From NCBI GenBank assembly GCA_002779395.1, contig PEWR01000061.1, positions 5,104-69,103 on the forward strand: a DNA stretch of 64,000 nt. Direction: 5' to 3'. Shown piece after piece: positions 6,705 through 12,501 of this stretch (positions are counted from its first letter, which is position 1; each line of letters begins with the position of its first letter). Both the position numbers and the translations under genes were made by a program. Source of the DNA: Ignavibacteriales bacterium CG07_land_8_20_14_0_80_59_12 (GTDB lineage Bacteria; Bacteroidota; Ignavibacteria; 0-14-0-80-59-12). The notes under the pieces are model-generated. The model saw nothing but the letters and a program-made list of their open reading frames with translations, made no database searches and was not told where the DNA came from.

Positions 6705-6787
6705 AGGGCTGCCGGCAGAACAACGAAATCCCGATGCCATTCGTCGTCCAGATGGAACACTTCATCATTTCTCCCTATTCTGATCTC

Positions 6788-6917
6788 CTAGAAGTCCGGC
6801 CGAAAACCCGCATGTCGACGGGAGTGTAGCATGAAGCTTGCGCCATTTCTTGAGCACACGTGATCTCAGAAGAAAAACAGGCGAATCCATGTTCAACCAG
6901 CGTGACGCTCAAGAGTC
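6788..6917 (+). mobile_element. Solo 130-bp left-end fragment of an IS5/IS1182-family element (copy 1). It includes the first 9 codons of the transposase, after which homology stops.
   Basis: It is about 97% identical (3 mismatches) to 9869..9998, where the same sequence continues into a transposase ORF. The shared string begins ctagaagtccggccgaaaacccgcatgtcgacggg and ends atgttcaacc[a/g]gcgtgacgctcaagagtc. Confidence 0.6.
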
Positions 6918-6939
6918 AAATAAGAGGTGAAAAGTCAAA

Positions 6940-6964
6940 CCCCCTCTCCATAGAGGAGAGGGGG
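6940..6964 (-). terminator. Probable intrinsic terminator for gene 6992..7570
   Basis: Perfect 10-bp GC-rich stem ccccctctcc/ggagaggggg with a 5-nt loop. On the minus strand it is followed by GTTTGACTTTTC. It lies 27 nt past the stop codon. Confidence 0.4.
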
Positions 6965-6991
6965 TTAAAGAACCTCTTCGGGGAGTGTGGT

Positions 6992-7570
6992 CTACCGCAC
7001 GTAGGCTAACTTCTTCACATTGGTGGATGTTCTGCTACTCACCTCAGATTTCGCCACCATACGATAGAAGTAAATCCCGCTGGCAACAGCCTCCGGCTTC
7101 CAATCAACTTTGTGAAAACCAGGTGGCTCAATCCCTTCAACGAGCGTTGCAACTTCTTCTCCAAGCACATTGTAGAGCTTGATGCTCACCTGAGATTCCT
7201 CAGGAAGTGCAAATTCAATCATAGTGCTCGGATTAAATGGATTCGGGTAGTTCTGCTCAAGCCGATACTCAGTAGGAAGCATCTCGCCCGGCTGCTCTGC
7301 TACACCTGTCAACAGATAGCGCTGCACGTGCCAGAAGCCGGCGATCTGCTTATTGGATGCATTGCTCGTTGTGCCGATGAATGGCTGTCCGAGCGTGCCA
7401 ACAAGCTTGTTGTCCCTGGAACTGAGTGAACCTCCTCCACTTCCAAAGACGCTCCGCGGGATGGCATACTGCCCTGATGCACTCTGGCAGAAGAGAAACA
7501 AGAAAACCACAATTCCTGCCGAAAAAATTGTCCCGCTAAAAGAAACGGGATTTTCAAGAAGATGTCTCAT
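6992..7570 (-). CDS. Small secreted protein with a T9SS C-terminal sorting domain (192 aa); cargo function unknown
   Basis: Signal peptide MRHLLENPVSFSGTIFSAGIVVFLFLFCQSASGQ. The last ~85 aa form a type-A Por secretion tail (NYPNPFNPSTMIEFALPEESQVSIKLYNVLGEEVATLV...GIYFYRMVA). GC is about 50% versus about 62% for the window. Confidence 0.8.
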   Translation of the reverse strand: MRHLLENPVSFSGTIFSAGIVVFLFLFCQSASGQYAIPRSVFGSGGGSLSSRDNKLVGTLGQPFIGTTSNASNKQIAGFWHVQRYLLTGVAEQPGEMLPTEYRLEQNYPNPFNPSTMIEFALPEESQVSIKLYNVLGEEVATLVEGIEPPGFHKVDWKPEAVASGIYFYRMVAKSEVSSRTSTNVKKLAYVR

Positions 7571-7583
7571 TTTTTTACCCTCC

Positions 7584-9617
7584 TCACTTTGCCTCTGGCT
7601 TTGCTTGCATCTTCTCTTGCTCAGCTTTCATCTTCTCTTGCTCAGCTTTCATCTTCTCTTGCTCAGCCCTCATCTGCTCCTCCATCTCGTGGTTCTTCTC
7701 ATAGTCTATACCCAACGTCTCTGATACGCCGTATTCCTTTGGATGGATGTACTTCCCTCGCTCCGCACCGGTTTTCTCCACCTCAACTTGAGCGGGATGC
7801 GCTTTAACATACGGGTCGTTACGGATGCCTGTGACCTGCCAGGAGACTCTCACGTTCGGTTTGTCAGTCTTGATTGAGAAGCGGTTGTTGTGAATTTCTT
7901 CACTCACGATTGCCTGAGCAAACTGTCCGATGACCGTTAATTGGTAGCGAAAGTCGCGGTTGAGGGCTTCGAAGTAGTCGGGTAGGGTGACCGTTGCCTC
8001 ACCATTAGCATCAGTAACGACGTTACCATTGTAGATATTCAGCACCTCATCCGACTCCACACAGAAATGGGCCAGGTACTTATTTGCCGGGTCGAGCGGA
8101 TGATCAATTTTGAATGACTTGTAGCCACCGACGTAGAGATGTCCTACGATCACCACATCGCCTTCGAAGTGGCCAGCGGGGGAGCTGCCGCTGCTCCAGC
8201 CATACACGGCGATGCCGGTGGTACTGTAGCCATATACGCCGTAGGGGTTGCCGGAGCCCCACACGCCGCAGTCACTCATGCCAAGGTATCCGAAGTTGCC
8301 GCTACTGCTGTAGCCATACACGCCATAGTCCGCGCCGTCGCCATACACGCCGTAGGTGCCGTGTCCATACACGCCGTAGCTTTGGCCGCCAAGGTATCCA
8401 TAGCGACCGCTCCCGTCGTTGCAGCCATACACGCCATACTCCCCGGCCTTGCCATACACGCCAGTGCTCCTGAAGCTCGTACCTCTGCCATAGACGCCGT
8501 AGCCGCTGTTGCTTTCGCCATACACGCCGTTGCCGCTGTTGTTGTAGCCATGCACGCCGTCGTTGCTGGTGCTTTCGCCATAGACGCCGTAGCCGCTGCC
8601 GCTGTAGCCATAGACGCCGTAGCCGCTGTTGCTGTAGCCAAACACGCCATCGTTGCTGTTGCTTTCGCCATACACGCCGTAGCCGCTGCCGCTGTAGCCA
8701 AACACGCCTTCGCCGCTGCTGCCAAGCCATCCGTAGTTGCCGCTGGTGCTGTGTATGCCAGACACGCCGGAGACGTAACCGCCAAGGTATCCGTAGCTGT
8801 CGCTAGTGCTGTTGTAGCCTTTCACGCCGGCGCCGCTGCCGGAATTTGTAGCAAAGATAATTGAATTTGGAGAAGCAGAGCTGCCGCTGAGTGAAAGAGG
8901 AACCCTCACGTTCAACGTCACATCACCAGTCGTTCCTCCACCGGATAAGCCTGTACCGGCAGTGACCCCAGTGATGTCGCCGCCAGCTCCGCCTGGGGTT
9001 GTGGCAATGGTCAAGGTGTTACCCAACGGGGTGATGCTTACGTTGGACCCTGCCTGCAGCGTGACGTTGTCGTGCAAGCTGTTCAGGCTCTTGACCACCT
9101 CTCCAGAGGCAATCTTGGTGCTGTCCACAGCACCATCGGCAATCTTCGCTGAGGTAACTGCATTGTTGTTAATACTTGGATTTGGATATCTCCCTGTTAA
9201 ATCACCGCCAGCTGTAATACCATTGATGCTGTCTGTGTTTGCAGCACGGAAGCTGTAGCCAGAGCCTGTCAACTGCATTCTCGGCGTAAGTTCCGTACCA
9301 GCTCCAACTGTTACTTCAAGCCAGTACGGCTTGTTAAAGGGCAGGTTTAATGTATCTACGCTCCCTAAGTTCACGCTGAATATCCCTTTGCTGACTGCAA
9401 CTGATTGTACCTCTTGCCATAGCGGCGTACCGCCTGTGGTAACGTCGTAGAGCTTGAAGGTGAGGCTGTAGTTACCATCAGGTACAGCCGTGCCGCTGGC
9501 ATCTGTCAAGATCCCCTGGTAGCTGATCGTCTTGGGAATTTGTGCAAGGCTCAATGGTGCAAGAAGAAGCACCATCAGTGCGATGGACAAGAATGTCCAA
9601 CGTAGAGTTGTGTTCAT
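7584..9617 (-). CDS. Gly/Tyr-rich repeat fibre-like secreted protein (677 aa). It has a signal peptide, an N-terminal beta domain, GYGVYG decapeptide repeats, a conserved C-terminal domain and a heptad coiled-coil tail.
   Basis: AAGGAGG RBS. Signal peptide MNTTLRWTFLSIALMVLLLAPLSLAQ. N-terminal domain ISYQGILTDASGTAVPDGNYSLTFKLYD. Central region has ~15 copies of the GYGVYG core across residues ~260-470, of which 8 are regular 30-bp units. C-terminal domain KSFKIDHPLDPANKYLAHFCVESDEVLNIYNGNVVTDANGEATVTLPDYFEALNRDFRYQLTVIG. Tail MRAEQEKMKAEQEKMKAEQEKMQAKPEAK. There is no T9SS C-terminal domain. Confidence 0.85.
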   Translation of the reverse strand: MNTTLRWTFLSIALMVLLLAPLSLAQIPKTISYQGILTDASGTAVPDGNYSLTFKLYDVTTGGTPLWQEVQSVAVSKGIFSVNLGSVDTLNLPFNKPYWLEVTVGAGTELTPRMQLTGSGYSFRAANTDSINGITAGGDLTGRYPNPSINNNAVTSAKIADGAVDSTKIASGEVVKSLNSLHDNVTLQAGSNVSITPLGNTLTIATTPGGAGGDITGVTAGTGLSGGGTTGDVTLNVRVPLSLSGSSASPNSIIFATNSGSGAGVKGYNSTSDSYGYLGGYVSGVSGIHSTSGNYGWLGSSGEGVFGYSGSGYGVYGESNSNDGVFGYSNSGYGVYGYSGSGYGVYGESTSNDGVHGYNNSGNGVYGESNSGYGVYGRGTSFRSTGVYGKAGEYGVYGCNDGSGRYGYLGGQSYGVYGHGTYGVYGDGADYGVYGYSSSGNFGYLGMSDCGVWGSGNPYGVYGYSTTGIAVYGWSSGSSPAGHFEGDVVIVGHLYVGGYKSFKIDHPLDPANKYLAHFCVESDEVLNIYNGNVVTDANGEATVTLPDYFEALNRDFRYQLTVIGQFAQAIVSEEIHNNRFSIKTDKPNVRVSWQVTGIRNDPYVKAHPAQVEVEKTGAERGKYIHPKEYGVSETLGIDYEKNHEMEEQMRAEQEKMKAEQEKMKAEQEKMQAKPEAK
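7603..7686. repeat. 21-bp tandem repeat, about 3.5 copies, encoding AEQEKMK heptads at the C-terminus of the fibre protein
   Basis: gcttgcatcttctcttgctca / gctttcatcttctcttgctca (twice) / a degenerate 4th unit. The period of 21 bp equals 7 aa. Confidence 0.8.
8482..8751. repeat. 30-bp imperfect tandem repeat, 8 regular units from 8512 with a degenerate copy upstream, encoding (S/N)SGYGVYGES decapeptides inside the fibre gene
   Basis: Units such as GCCATAGACGCCGTAGCCGCTGTTGCTTTC recur with 2-6 substitutions each. Antisense ORFs in the track (8139..8864, 8276..8785, 8302..8730) are artefacts of this repeat. Confidence 0.8.
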
Positions 9618-9868
9618 GGTACTACCTCCTTGTTTTGTTTGTTATGATGGTTTGTTTCCTAACGTGCAAAAGACGTTGGGCTGTTGACTGTCCCGCTGAA
9701 AAGAACGGGATTTTTCAATCTGTGCACATCTATGTTTACCCCTTTCCTTGTAGGAGAGGGTAGGGTGAGGTCATGAAATGCCTGGCTCATTGCTGCAACT
9801 GTTTCCTTCTGCATCCGCTTATTTACTGTTATATATAGTAGGAATTTGCTTCAGCTGCAAAAGATAAT

Positions 9869-10430
9869 CTAGAAGTCCGGCCGAAAACCCGCATGTCGAC
9901 GGGAGTGTGGCATGAAGCTTGCGCCATTTCTTGAGCACACGTGATCTCGGAAGAAAAACAGGCGAATCCATGTTCAACCGGCGTGACGCTCAAGAGTCTC
10001 TTCTCAATTCTGACAGTCAGTTTCTCAAAACTGTGGGTCGAGACACGTTCTATGGATTTCTCTCTGAGCATCGGCACGGGATCTTCCGTGACGACGACTT
10101 CGGATTTCTCTACTGCCGGAACAACGGCCGCCCGTCGGTCCCGCCGAGCATCTTAGCTCTCTCACTTCTCCTGCAGATCTACAACAAGGTCTCGGACGAC
10201 GAGGCGGCGCGCCGTGCCCACTTCGATCTCCAGTGGCAGGTCGCGCTCGGGATCCCCGTCGGTTCGCAAACGTTCGTCAAGAGCACGTTGCAGATGTTCC
10301 CTTCGCAACTCATTCTCCATGAGACAGCGCGCGACATTTTCATGAAGTCGATTGGCAACCACCTAACTGTCCGGAAGGCTGTGACACGGTACAACGCCGA
10401 GAATGCTCTCCGCCTCACCGATCAGGCTGT
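9869..10430 (+). mobile_element. Truncated IS5/IS1182-family element (copy 2): left end plus the N-terminal ~150 codons of the transposase. The 3' boundary is approximate.
   Basis: The first 130 bp duplicate 6788..6917. The encoded N-terminus contains the InsH-type DUF772 motif FLYCRNNGRPSVPPSILALSLLLQIYNKVSDDEAARRAHFDLQWQVALGI. There is no DDE catalytic region. The ORF runs into the oppositely oriented gene at 10435. Confidence 0.6.
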
Positions 10431-10506
10431 TCTGTCATTTCACCAAGGTCATCTTCTGAATCTTCGAGAACGACCCTCCCGTTATCTGATAGAAGTAGAG
10501 ACCTGA
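9970..10506 (+). pseudogene. Transposase N-terminal fragment (IS5/IS1182 family), truncated
   Basis: The true start is most likely MFNRRDAQESLL at 9970; the track ORF 9919..10506 starts at an upstream in-frame codon. Only ~150-180 aa of the expected ~450 are present, and the tail is probably read-through into antisense of the neighbouring gene. Confidence 0.55.
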
Positions 10507-10740
10507 GGAAAACCCTGAGGCGTCGAACAGAACCGCATGCATCCCGGGCGAGAGCGTCTCATCCACCAGCTTGGTGATTTCCCGGCCCATCGAGTCGAAA
10601 ACCCTCAGCACGACGTGTTCTGACTGTGGCAATTCAAAGCTTATCATGGTGTTTGGATTGAAGGGATTTGGAGAGAGGTGAAGCTTGCCCCTGTTGCGCC
10701 CGAATCGGATGTACGGCAATGGCGGCAAAACAGAAGGCAA
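10435..10740 (-). pseudogene. Orphan T9SS C-terminal sorting domain, a remnant of a decayed secreted-protein gene
   Basis: The track ORF begins at a TTG. Only the last ~80 aa are domain-like (SPNPFNPNTMISFELPQSEHVVLRVFDSMGREITKLVDETLSPGMHAVLFDASGFSSGLYFYQI). An ATG-initiated signal-peptide ORF (MRILSGIAVAFCFAAIAV...) lies in another frame at 10723-10765. The upstream PQQ gene is in the third frame. Confidence 0.5.
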
Positions 10741-10787
10741 CCGCGATACCGGACAAGATTCTCATTGTTTCCCCCTTTCTTGTTTGT

Positions 10788-12041
10788 TCATTTGATCGCG
10801 TATACGTGGTGACCGGGATTGTTGGAGCTCACATATATTCTCCCGTTACCGCTGATTGCCGGCGGAGAATCGATATTGGGGATCCAACCGCCCAGACCTC
10901 CCGCGAGATACATCTGAAACTTCATCGTGCCATCTGGATTCAGAGCAATGAAGTTGGTTGAATCGGCTGGATTCCCGTATGGTCTGCGAGAGTGAGTGAG
11001 TCCAAAGTAGATTGTCCCATCCACGTCAATGGCTGGTATGCAGTCAGAAAGTGCAGGAAGTGGGTATTTCCACTTCAGTCTGCCTGCGTAGTCGATCGCA
11101 TACAAATCCAAACACGTGATAACATAGATCGTGCCGTCCCATCCGATGATGGGCCCGATGCCCAACCCTGTCCAGGGCACTCCAGGGAGTCGCCACCGCA
11201 GCACGCCCGATTGGTCGAACGAGCATAATTCATCCGCTCCGGCACAGAAGTAGACATTGCCGTCGTTGTCAACTGCAGGCGCCGATGGTACTTTTCTGCA
11301 AGTCAACCTCAAATGACCGCTCGTGTCCACAGCATAAAGCGCGTGGCCACCAGGGACATAGAGTAATGTGCCATCCGGGCTCATCGCCGGTGAGTATTGA
11401 ACGGAGTCACTGTCGGGCTTCCACTTCCAGTGTAGTGTCCCATCCCTTCGGATAGCGTATAGTGAACCTACCGCAAGATAGACTGTTCCCCCATCTTTCG
11501 AGATTACCGGCGAACTGAAGCTCGCATTCCCTACCACAGGGAATCTCCATTTCAGAAAACCACCACGGTCATAAGCAAACAGGTACCGTTGCCAGTTGTC
11601 ATAACCGTCCACGTGCACATTCCCATCAGCAGCGACCAACGCCGAGCCGTCTCCTGCAGTGGATTTGCTCCACTTTAACTGACCATCTGCTCCTATGGCG
11701 AGGAAATCCGGAGAAAAAGAACTGACGCGCACGTAGATTGTCCCGTTTTCATCAATCACCGGGGATGAGAATACCCCACCGCCAGCGAAAAACGTCCACT
11801 CGACTTTCCCCTCTTGCGGACCGCGGTACGGGCTCCTTCCGGTATGCTGCGCATCATGGAGGAACATTGGCCAGGGGGAATTGGCTAACCCCGGCCAGGA
11901 GATCTCATGTTGTTGCTTGGTTAGAAAATGCGCGGTGTCCGGCGGCGCAACTAGTTGGCTGTTCTTCCTACATGACGCGGAGAAGAGAGCGAAGGACAGG
12001 ATGAGAACTGATCCCACAAATGCTGCAAGTGCGCTTCGCAT
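10788..12041 (-). CDS. PQQ-like beta-propeller repeat lipoprotein (BamB-like fold)
   Basis: AGGAGG RBS. Lipoprotein signal LILSFALFSASC. Repeated xDGTIY(V/F) blades recur throughout (DENGTIYV, DGNVHV, DGGTVYLAV, DGTLLYV, DGNVYF, DGTIYV, NGRIYV). GC is about 52%. Confidence 0.8.
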   Translation of the reverse strand: MRSALAAFVGSVLILSFALFSASCRKNSQLVAPPDTAHFLTKQQHEISWPGLANSPWPMFLHDAQHTGRSPYRGPQEGKVEWTFFAGGGVFSSPVIDENGTIYVRVSSFSPDFLAIGADGQLKWSKSTAGDGSALVAADGNVHVDGYDNWQRYLFAYDRGGFLKWRFPVVGNASFSSPVISKDGGTVYLAVGSLYAIRRDGTLHWKWKPDSDSVQYSPAMSPDGTLLYVPGGHALYAVDTSGHLRLTCRKVPSAPAVDNDGNVYFCAGADELCSFDQSGVLRWRLPGVPWTGLGIGPIIGWDGTIYVITCLDLYAIDYAGRLKWKYPLPALSDCIPAIDVDGTIYFGLTHSRRPYGNPADSTNFIALNPDGTMKFQMYLAGGLGGWIPNIDSPPAISGNGRIYVSSNNPGHHVYAIK

Positions 12042-12501
12042 CTTTAACCTCCTGTATATCGTGACACTCTATTATCGGAGAGATGAGTATGCAAGCAGAA
12101 GCGTTCGCACCTCTCTCCCGAAAACGTCGAAGACCTTCAAGACGACCGGCTCCTTCACCGGGATCTTGAACTCGATCAGGGTCGATGCGCCCCGGAAGCT
12201 GGATCGGAGGATTCGGAGTGAGGTAGACGTAGTTGTCGTTCGGTTCATTCCGGTAAGCGTACCGGTATTCGAGCCGACCGCACGTTCGCCCGCGGAACGC
12301 GTTCATGTCGGAGATCGAGAACCTTGTCGCCAGGGTGTCGATGTTCAATCCACTCATGCTCCACTCCGCGGGCGAGGAGAAGTCCTGCATGAGATAGCTT
12401 CCAGCCGGTGCGACAACCTTCACGGTGGCGGTGTCCGATACGCCTCCGTAGCGGCACACAACGATTGCCTCGCCGCTCCGTTGCCCGCCGTGACGGGGAC
12501 C

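Follow-up and report, generated by a model that had tools for sequence, protein, structure and literature searches.

In a stretch of 64,000 nucleotides (nt) from Ignavibacteriales bacterium CG07_land_8_20_14_0_80_59_12 (assembly GCA_002779395.1, contig PEWR01000061.1, positions 5,104 to 69,103; hereafter the window, with positions counted from its first letter), we analyzed a small gene that lies next to the gene for a long fibre protein. On balance, with a modest lean in its favor, we consider that this small gene encodes the version, found in lineages with secretion systems of type IX (T9SS), of a conserved partner or anchor subunit of surface fibres resembling the mosaic adhesive trimers (MAT) of Bdellovibrio. 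The small protein probably exports the fibre and/or ties it to the cell. The features on which this assignment draws are the following (a slash marks a cleavage site; ORF, open reading frame):

6992 to 7570, minus strand: small ORF, 192 aa, PIU45435.1, stop codon at 6992-6994.
7472 to 7570, minus strand: signal peptide, residues 1-33, predicted cleavage ASG/Q34 (sequence features, helix in the AlphaFold2 model, family conservation).
7322 to 7471, minus strand: conserved N-terminal module, residues 34-83 (conservation, phmmer family).
7265 to 7321, minus strand: linker, residues 84-102, including the T9SS-lineage-specific stretch L-x-T-[SG]-V-E (T88 77% and V90 62% conserved).
6995 to 7264, minus strand: T9SS type A C-terminal sorting domain (CTD), residues 103-192 (curated models, AlphaFold2).
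7584 to 9617, minus strand: partner fibre gene, 677 aa, PIU45436.1, without a CTD.
9213 to 9545, minus strand: N-terminal domain of the fibre (residues 25-135), probably homologous to the Bdellovibrio MAT N-domain and the proposed docking site of the module.

In a sequence-only reading of this DNA, the small protein had been described as a minimal T9SS cargo; it is not a one-off but belongs to a large undescribed family of at least 225 clusters, which is defined by the module. An exhaustive phmmer search with residues 31-100 yielded, at E<=1e-3, 225 representatives of 50%-identity clusters, most of them 170-185 aa long and matching at positions ~22-90. The exhaustive search was needed, a word-indexed protein search being nearly empty (one match with the module and three with a 58-sequence profile). 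The consensus of 92 full-length members reads AxA/Q-Y-x-I-P-x-S-V-F-G-[NS]-G-G ... [RK]-I-x-G-T-[VL]-G-Q-P-x-I-G-(11 residues)-G-F-W-Y, followed by L-x-T-[SG]-V-E and the CTD. Within the module, G45, G78 and W80 are invariant, and conservation reaches 90% or more at V41, T59, G61, Q62, G66 and F79. In every member the module is N-terminal and comes immediately after the signal peptide. True members share the invariant G, W, T and Q positions, the fixed N-terminal location and a fixed length; P0003, P0107 and P0140, which are InlB B-repeat, WD40 and POT proteins, matched through their repeats and were discarded as false positives. Several proteins carry tandem modules in one chain, namely two copies in P0011 and in P0147 and three, together with a dockerin, in P0069 (MBI2832103.1, Chloroflexota); a chain with three copies would resemble three modules in a trimer. 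Neither Pfam nor NCBIfam has a model dedicated to the module, no consistent Pfam match was obtained for 58 members from the Fibrobacteres-Chlorobi-Bacteroidetes (FCB) group and eight variants from other phyla, and the module profile found no sequence relative in the PDB at E<=10.

The linkage of the module to fibre genes was examined in loci collected with a hand-made degenerate DNA pattern encoding V41, G45, T59, G61-Q62, G66 and G78-F79-W80, which matches the window once and none of 100 shuffles. A scan of one genome per GTDB species with this pattern gave at least 120 loci, taken as fixed 8-kb chunks, of which 116 were confirmed with a hidden Markov model; all locus counts given here are among the matches listed. 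Because only the module was used to collect these loci, an association with fibres cannot stem from the way they were collected. When these loci were searched with a profile that jackhmmer built from the fibre N-domain (residues 25-135), an ORF with this domain was found in 74 of the 116, the nearest one being within 150 nt of the module gene in 68 of these 74 and on the same strand in 73. The fibre protein of the window, used as a tblastn query, has matches in 78 of the 120 loci (same strand in 77), and fibre similarity of any kind is present in 87 of the 116. Same-strand adjacency holds across the FCB phyla, Chloroflexota, Planctomycetota, Acidobacteriota and Gammaproteobacteria. At least 10 loci contain two or three fibre genes for a single module gene; the N-domain is common to these fibres, with the shafts and C-terminal parts varying, so that the arrangement fits a pairing of the module with the common N-domain and not with the variable tips.

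The two genes also divide their features in a consistent manner. A CTD was detected in none of the 89 fibre ORFs (78 of them are complete at the 3' end), as against 57 module proteins that carry one. No fusions of module and fibre were found among the 118 module ORFs and 89 fibre ORFs, no relationship between the module and the fibre N-domain was detected by hhalign (probability 0.4%), and no third recurrent gene family, such as a chaperone or a secretin, was found in the 116 loci. Of the three candidate roles listed in the sequence-only reading, a scaffold for the adjacent fibre is the one favored here, on account of the adjacency conserved across several phyla.

The listed loci come from Ignavibacteriota, Chlorobiota, Kapabacteria, Bacteroidota, Rhodothermota, Calditrichota, Zixibacteria, WOR-3 and Eisenbacteria, and also from Chloroflexota, Planctomycetota, Acidobacteriota, Gammaproteobacteria and Verrucomicrobiota. 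What differs among lineages is the C-terminal end. The 57 proteins with a T9SS CTD are nearly all from the FCB group, and 50 of them are minimal, like the window protein; in the long T9SS forms, only BACON, PKD, TIG, cohesin or dockerin domains separate the module from the CTD. Module proteins of Zixibacteria end in a dockerin (Dockerin_1, 1.3e-9), those of Planctomycetota have dockerin/EF-hand-like tails, and in one MAG (metagenome-assembled genome) of Thermoanaerobaculia the module is combined with PKD plus SLH (SLH 1.8e-5). The Chloroflexota versions are ~95-105 aa long (L027, L122, L008, L041, L048, L084, L090, L121), and 14 of the 18 listed have a tail of 10-24 residues ending in Y-L-P-L-V-x-R, which matches NF053834 (ultrashort_CTERM, 'YLP-box putative sorting motif') with 15.5 bits at a cut-off of 10. 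The architectures follow a single logic, in which the module stands at the N-terminus, Ig-like spacers may come next, and the C-terminal end is a sorting or anchoring device that depends on the lineage. In Lysobacterales the versions end in [IL]-F-x-x-G-F-E, which, like the YLP-box, is a putative short C-terminal signal joined to the same module.

The window protein, deposited as a 'hypothetical protein' of an Ignavibacteriales MAG, is present in identical form on 19 metagenome contigs with the same neighbors, and an 82%-identical homologue (L007) is also located directly 3' of a fibre gene. In this homologue (L007, 514-1068), the codon corresponding to E116, within the CTD, is a stop, and the remaining CTD continues in the same frame; the homologue is known from a single 1.6-kb contig and represents a pseudogene or a sequencing error. 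The 192-aa ORF consists, as first described, of a signal peptide, a module and a sorting tail, and the sequence then quoted for its middle part corresponds to residues 35-98. The signal peptide was judged from its n-, h- and c-regions and from the AxA/Q consensus across the family: the n-region contains R2/H3, the hydrophobic core is IFSAGIVVFLFLF, the c-region is QSASG/Q, and the AlphaFold2 model has a helix at residues 11-26. The Q at +1, conserved in 85% of the family, fits the pyroglutamate 'Q-rule' for signal-peptidase substrates of Bacteroidota.

Residues 108-179 match both Pfam Por_Secre_tail (PF18962; 29.4 bits, cut-off 27) and TIGR04183 (32.0 bits, cut-off 23), and in an AlphaFold2 model based on a 92-sequence alignment residues ~103-192 form a beta-sandwich with six strands over 116-190 and a predicted local distance difference test score (pLDDT) of 95-98. 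The PDB matches of the family profile include CTDs, namely 8glj_D and those of gingipains (5hfs and 7pq4), and PorU is among the matches of a fold search with the model. By domain criteria the small protein thus classifies as a T9SS type A cargo, as had been proposed, both curated type A cut-offs being passed and a signal peptide being present, and an unusually small one. The CTD spans residues ~103-192, and the passenger therefore comprises about 67 residues (34-100); the earlier estimates of ~85 aa for the tail and ~75 aa for the middle part require slight correction, to about 90 aa and to this somewhat smaller figure. The L-x-T-[SG]-V-E stretch of the linker is conserved only in family members with a CTD and is a plausible sortase-processing region; from general knowledge of T9SS, a PorU-type cleavage site would lie within this linker (84-102).

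Structure prediction had also been suggested for the middle region. In the same model, in which the CTD is predicted with such high confidence, the module has four short strands (44-50, 55-60, 66-69 and 74-77) that form two hairpins, with a pLDDT of only 54-68; the model thus reads as a module that does not fold confidently alone. A single-sequence AlphaFold2 prediction of the small protein was uninformative (pLDDT 41). The fold search returned generic Ig-like sandwiches only; these matches are driven by the CTD and are therefore uninformative on the module.

The fibre protein, likewise deposited as a 'hypothetical protein', consists of a signal peptide, a MAT-like N-domain, a shaft of Gly-rich 10-aa repeats, a conserved C-terminal domain and EQEKMKA heptads, and is probably trimeric. 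Its N-domain matches the Bdello_MAT_N model (NF053851) with 28.8-30.7 bits (E 2e-7 to 9e-7; cut-off 60 bits), and 26 of 27 fibre relatives match the same model (best 4.4e-11). These similarities suggest that the N-domain is homologous to that of MAT proteins while falling outside the Bdellovibrio subfamily. No relative of the fibre was found in the PDB, and its matches in PHROG are to phage tail and tail-fibre proteins (E ~4e-4). A phage origin was considered and rejected: these tail matches are weak, the small protein has no PHROG match, and the module pattern has no matches in 2.9 million viral contigs. The fibre is polymorphic in length, the cluster members of PIU45436.1 having 670, 677 and 690 aa, and its heptads are encoded by 21-nt tandem repeats (7593-7676). 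In a strain variant (L005; flanks 93-95% identical), ~1017 bp of the Gly-rich shaft (8118-9134) are replaced by ~258 bp, with the fibre N-domain, the C-domain and the small partner all retained.

The only named relative of the module is PamT, whose profile (NF058579, 241 positions) matches it over positions ~5-85. The match was obtained for 19 of 58 FCB modules (best 9.6e-7), which align to positions ~29-80, as well as in Chloroflexota (6.6e-6), Acidobacteriota (2e-5), Lysobacterales (5e-4), WOR-3 (5e-4) and P0069 (2.2e-8). The window protein itself scores 15.3 bits (E 0.0098, profile positions 23-82) against a cut-off of 240 bits and is encoded in a different operon, so that its identification as PamT was rejected. 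PamT is encoded in the pam pilus operon of the candidate phyla radiation (CPR) and, according to AlphaFold models, is predicted to form the tip of the pilus, where the next pilin would donate a strand to it (bioRxiv 10.64898/2026.03.03.709456). Like the small protein, PamT is Sec-exported, has at its mature N-terminus the same ~50-residue G-G-G ... G-T-x-G-Q ... G-F-W module, is encoded in an operon with surface-filament subunits and is predicted at one end of the filament; this tip role is itself an AlphaFold-based prediction. Unlike the small protein, it lacks a T9SS tail and has an additional domain, predicted to be a truncated Ig-like one, and the filament to which it belongs is not a MAT-like fibre but a pilus of the donor-strand-exchange type (pilins PamA/PamB, chaperones PamC/PamD); the neighbors in the window are the MAT-like fibre, a 4HBT thioesterase and an IS1182 fragment, and there is no pam operon.

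Three other known systems invite comparison. PorA, a protein of 246 aa with a 135-aa passenger that is cleaved between A27 and Q28, is described as the smallest verified type A cargo (PMC12152298); it resembles the small protein in its size, its dependence (for the latter by domain criteria) on Sec and T9SS, the Q at +1, the type A CTD and the non-enzymatic passenger. However, the PorA passenger is folded and its 135 residues compare with ~67 here, and PorA acts through its CTD as a ligand of PorY, whereas in the present family it is the N-terminal module that is conserved, in the context of a fibre operon. The neighboring fibre resembles Bdellovibrio MAT proteins of the non-S74 subfamily in its signal peptide, N-domain, repetitive shaft and variable C-terminal part (PMC10769870), but no small partner has been described for the latter and the scores are below the 60-bit cut-off. 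MAT fibres are surface-located, and in the same study the N-domain was proposed to bind an unidentified surface element, with the anchoring of the N-terminal end stated to be open (PMC10769870). Finally, 'choice-of-anchor' domains and cohesin-dockerin scaffolds likewise combine one passenger with alternative ends (here T9SS CTD, dockerin, SLH or YLP-box); in contrast to these, the passenger of the present family is only ~50 residues long and tied to a fibre gene, and none of the NCBIfam choice-of-anchor models matches the module.

Combining these observations, the following scenario can be proposed. After Sec export, the module would bind the conserved N-domain of the (probably trimeric) fibre. 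Given that the module consists of two beta-hairpins that do not fold confidently alone, the most likely mode of binding would be beta-strand complementation, possibly with the module as a trimer. The CTD would then take the small protein, possibly with the bound fibre, through the T9SS across the outer membrane. Processing of the PorU type would leave a peptide of ~60 residues, with an N-terminal pyroglutamate, linked to anionic lipopolysaccharide (LPS), and this peptide would hold the cell-proximal end of the fibre on the outer membrane, with the variable tip pointing outward; anchoring of T9SS cargo has been described (PMC13086638). A more specific version, which we regard as possible but doubtful, is that the small protein is a trans-acting T9SS tag, in which the module clamps the CTD-less fibre, the CTD carries the complex through SprA, and the sortase tethers it to LPS via the ~60-residue peptide, other phyla using dockerin, SLH or YLP-box tails instead.

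Several points weigh against a role as fibre partner or anchor. The binding of the module to the fibre is what we infer, structure prediction having covered the monomer only, and we know of no established precedent for a CTD-less protein hitch-hiking through T9SS. Every match of a fibre N-domain to Bdello_MAT_N is below the 60-bit cut-off, which is specific for Bdellovibrio, and the YLP-box is only a putative sorting motif. No fibre was found in 29 of the 116 listed module loci; many, albeit not all, of these module genes are at the edge of the chunk and, because the loci are fixed 8-kb chunks, several of the missing partners are edge effects. The gene order varies, with the fibre upstream of the module gene in 50 listed loci and downstream in 24. 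The T9SS machinery (SprA/Sov, PorV, PorU, PorK-N) was not found in the 64-kb window, where the ten large ORFs that were scanned are housekeeping genes; T9SS is expected in Ignavibacteriales, a lineage of the FCB group. In addition, the model of the pam pilus places PamT at the distal tip and not at the base (bioRxiv 10.64898/2026.03.03.709456).

An alternative is that the small protein is not an anchor but an assembly or capping subunit, which nucleates or caps the trimer and uses its C-terminal signal only to co-localize with the fibre. Such a role would fit the similarity to PamT, a predicted tip or nucleator, the conserved adjacency to fibre genes, as with phage tail-fibre assembly proteins, the weak resemblance of the fibre to phage tail fibres, and the low confidence of the monomer model, which suggests that the module folds on a partner. 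Nevertheless, we consider it rather unlikely, given that the tails are devices for anchoring beyond export (dockerin, SLH, and the CTD, whose usual outcome is attachment to LPS), that the Ig-like spacers of the long forms suit a stalk and not a chaperone, and that the motif is absent from viral contigs. An independent small surface peptide (an adhesin, a ligand or an inhibitor) that is merely co-regulated with the fibre appears improbable: the immediate same-strand adjacency to fibres across many phyla, the service of one module gene to several fibre genes, the conservation of the module as opposed to the variability of the fibre tips, and a fold that is not confidently autonomous all argue against it, although the tiny passenger, whose distal N-terminus would be displayed after processing of the CTD, and the roughly one quarter of the listed module loci that have no fibre in the chunk would be readily accommodated.

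A regulatory cargo of the PorA type, in which the CTD reports the status of T9SS to a sensor kinase, would be consistent with the small size, and the signaling activity of PorA indeed resides in its CTD (PMC12152298). Yet what is conserved in the present family is the N-module rather than the CTD, in phyla outside the FCB group the module is joined to non-T9SS tails, no genes of the PorXY type are adjacent, and the PorA entry (PDB 6KJK) was not among the PDB matches of either the family profile (E<=1) or the module profile (E<=10), which makes this possibility very remote. It is barely credible, finally, that the module is functionless in itself and serves just as a generic spacer or a low-complexity linker. 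The sequence is Gly/Ser-rich and a few phmmer matches are repeat proteins, but these are the false positives P0003, P0107 and P0140, and the invariant G, W, T and Q positions, together with the fixed N-terminal place and length, already contradict a spacer; that the middle part might be a linker of many unrelated T9SS proteins had been raised at the outset, and the module turned out to be always N-terminal, to contain invariant residues and to occur also in proteins that lack a T9SS tail.

Two further features belong to the gene pair in the window:

7578 to 7583, minus strand: Shine-Dalgarno sequence GGAGGG, 7 nt 5' of the ATG of the small ORF, overlapping the TGA of the fibre gene (7584-7586).
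6938 to 6966, minus strand: terminator-like hairpin of 12 bp, eight of them G-C, followed by a T-rich stretch; 26 nt past the stop codon of the small ORF.

The gap between the fibre gene and the small ORF on the same strand was counted as 13 nt, and not 14 nt as previously given, and the stop codon of the fibre gene overlaps the Shine-Dalgarno sequence of the small ORF. No terminator-like site was found between the two genes, the only strong hairpin of this kind (6966-6938) being 3' of the small ORF. Co-transcription of the two genes, suggested on the basis of their proximity, is thus plausible, considering the 13-nt gap, the ribosome-binding site over the fibre stop and the single terminator past the pair. 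The low-GC island to which the small gene had been assigned holds for 6750-8000 and 9250-10000 (GC 0.47-0.51) but not for the Gly-rich middle of the fibre gene (0.58-0.62), and a better description is that of a transcription unit flanked on both sides by 130-nt direct repeats of an IS1182 fragment. The two copies (6788-6917 and 9869-9998) are 98% identical, lie 3081 nt apart and flank the unit of fibre and small gene; the one on the right forms the 5' end of a truncated transposase gene of the IS1182 family (ORF 9919-10506, plus strand; NF033551, 4e-17, only 123 of 488 profile positions). Independent assemblies show the bracketed arrangement too, with breaks at the repeat in some contigs; a search, via the 4HBT neighbor, for contigs of the same organism without the cassette returned only the same arrangement or repeat-broken contigs.

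A 26-nt hairpin-forming repeat, AAAATCCCGTTTCTTTTAGCGGGACA, has just two copies in the window (7529-7554 and 9689-9714, minus strand), which differ by three mismatches; none was found in shuffles. One copy is ~72-97 nt upstream of the ATG of the fibre gene, and the other falls within the small ORF, at codons 6-14, and encodes there the insertion ENPVSFSG, which most family members lack; the latter copy precedes a T-run and is accordingly flagged as terminator-like. Beside the IS fragment, a 101-aa ORF (10435-10740, minus strand) is essentially a T9SS CTD alone (TIGR04183, 36 bits) and is located 47 nt downstream, in a different frame, of a 417-aa ORF for a beta-propeller similar to those of pyrroloquinoline quinone (PQQ) proteins (10788-12041, minus strand), with a further CTD fragment upstream (12075-12302, minus strand). 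These ORFs (10435-12302) probably represent a split or frameshifted T9SS cargo, and the split between propeller and CTD is present in other assemblies as well. The rest of the window (14000-64000) encodes housekeeping functions (serine hydroxymethyltransferase, IMP dehydrogenase, aldehyde dehydrogenase, adenylosuccinate lyase, an HtrA-like protease, glycogen synthase and a carboxyltransferase), and no second fibre or module gene was found in it.

A search of the literature returned no paper describing a small partner of MAT-like fibres, and both genes are 'hypothetical protein' in public records; the kinds of protein to which they belong, T9SS cargo and accessory or anchor subunits of fibres, are known and do not constitute a new category. 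With respect to T9SS, the family represents cargo whose passenger has only about half the length of the smallest one verified so far, and it suggests that a CTD might serve, in trans, a partner that has none. PamT, the predicted pilus tip protein of CPR bacteria, moreover becomes part of a far larger family, and the YLP-box, a putative sorting motif, gains a recognizable passenger. Fibres of the MAT type serve in prey recognition by Bdellovibrio and have relatives in many phyla; a small, conserved, nearly always adjacent partner with a lineage-specific anchor is a candidate for the surface anchor of these fibres, so that the question of how they are held becomes testable. A trans-acting tag, if true, would amount to hitch-hiking T9SS export and would identify the long-sought class of surface anchors of MAT-type fibres.

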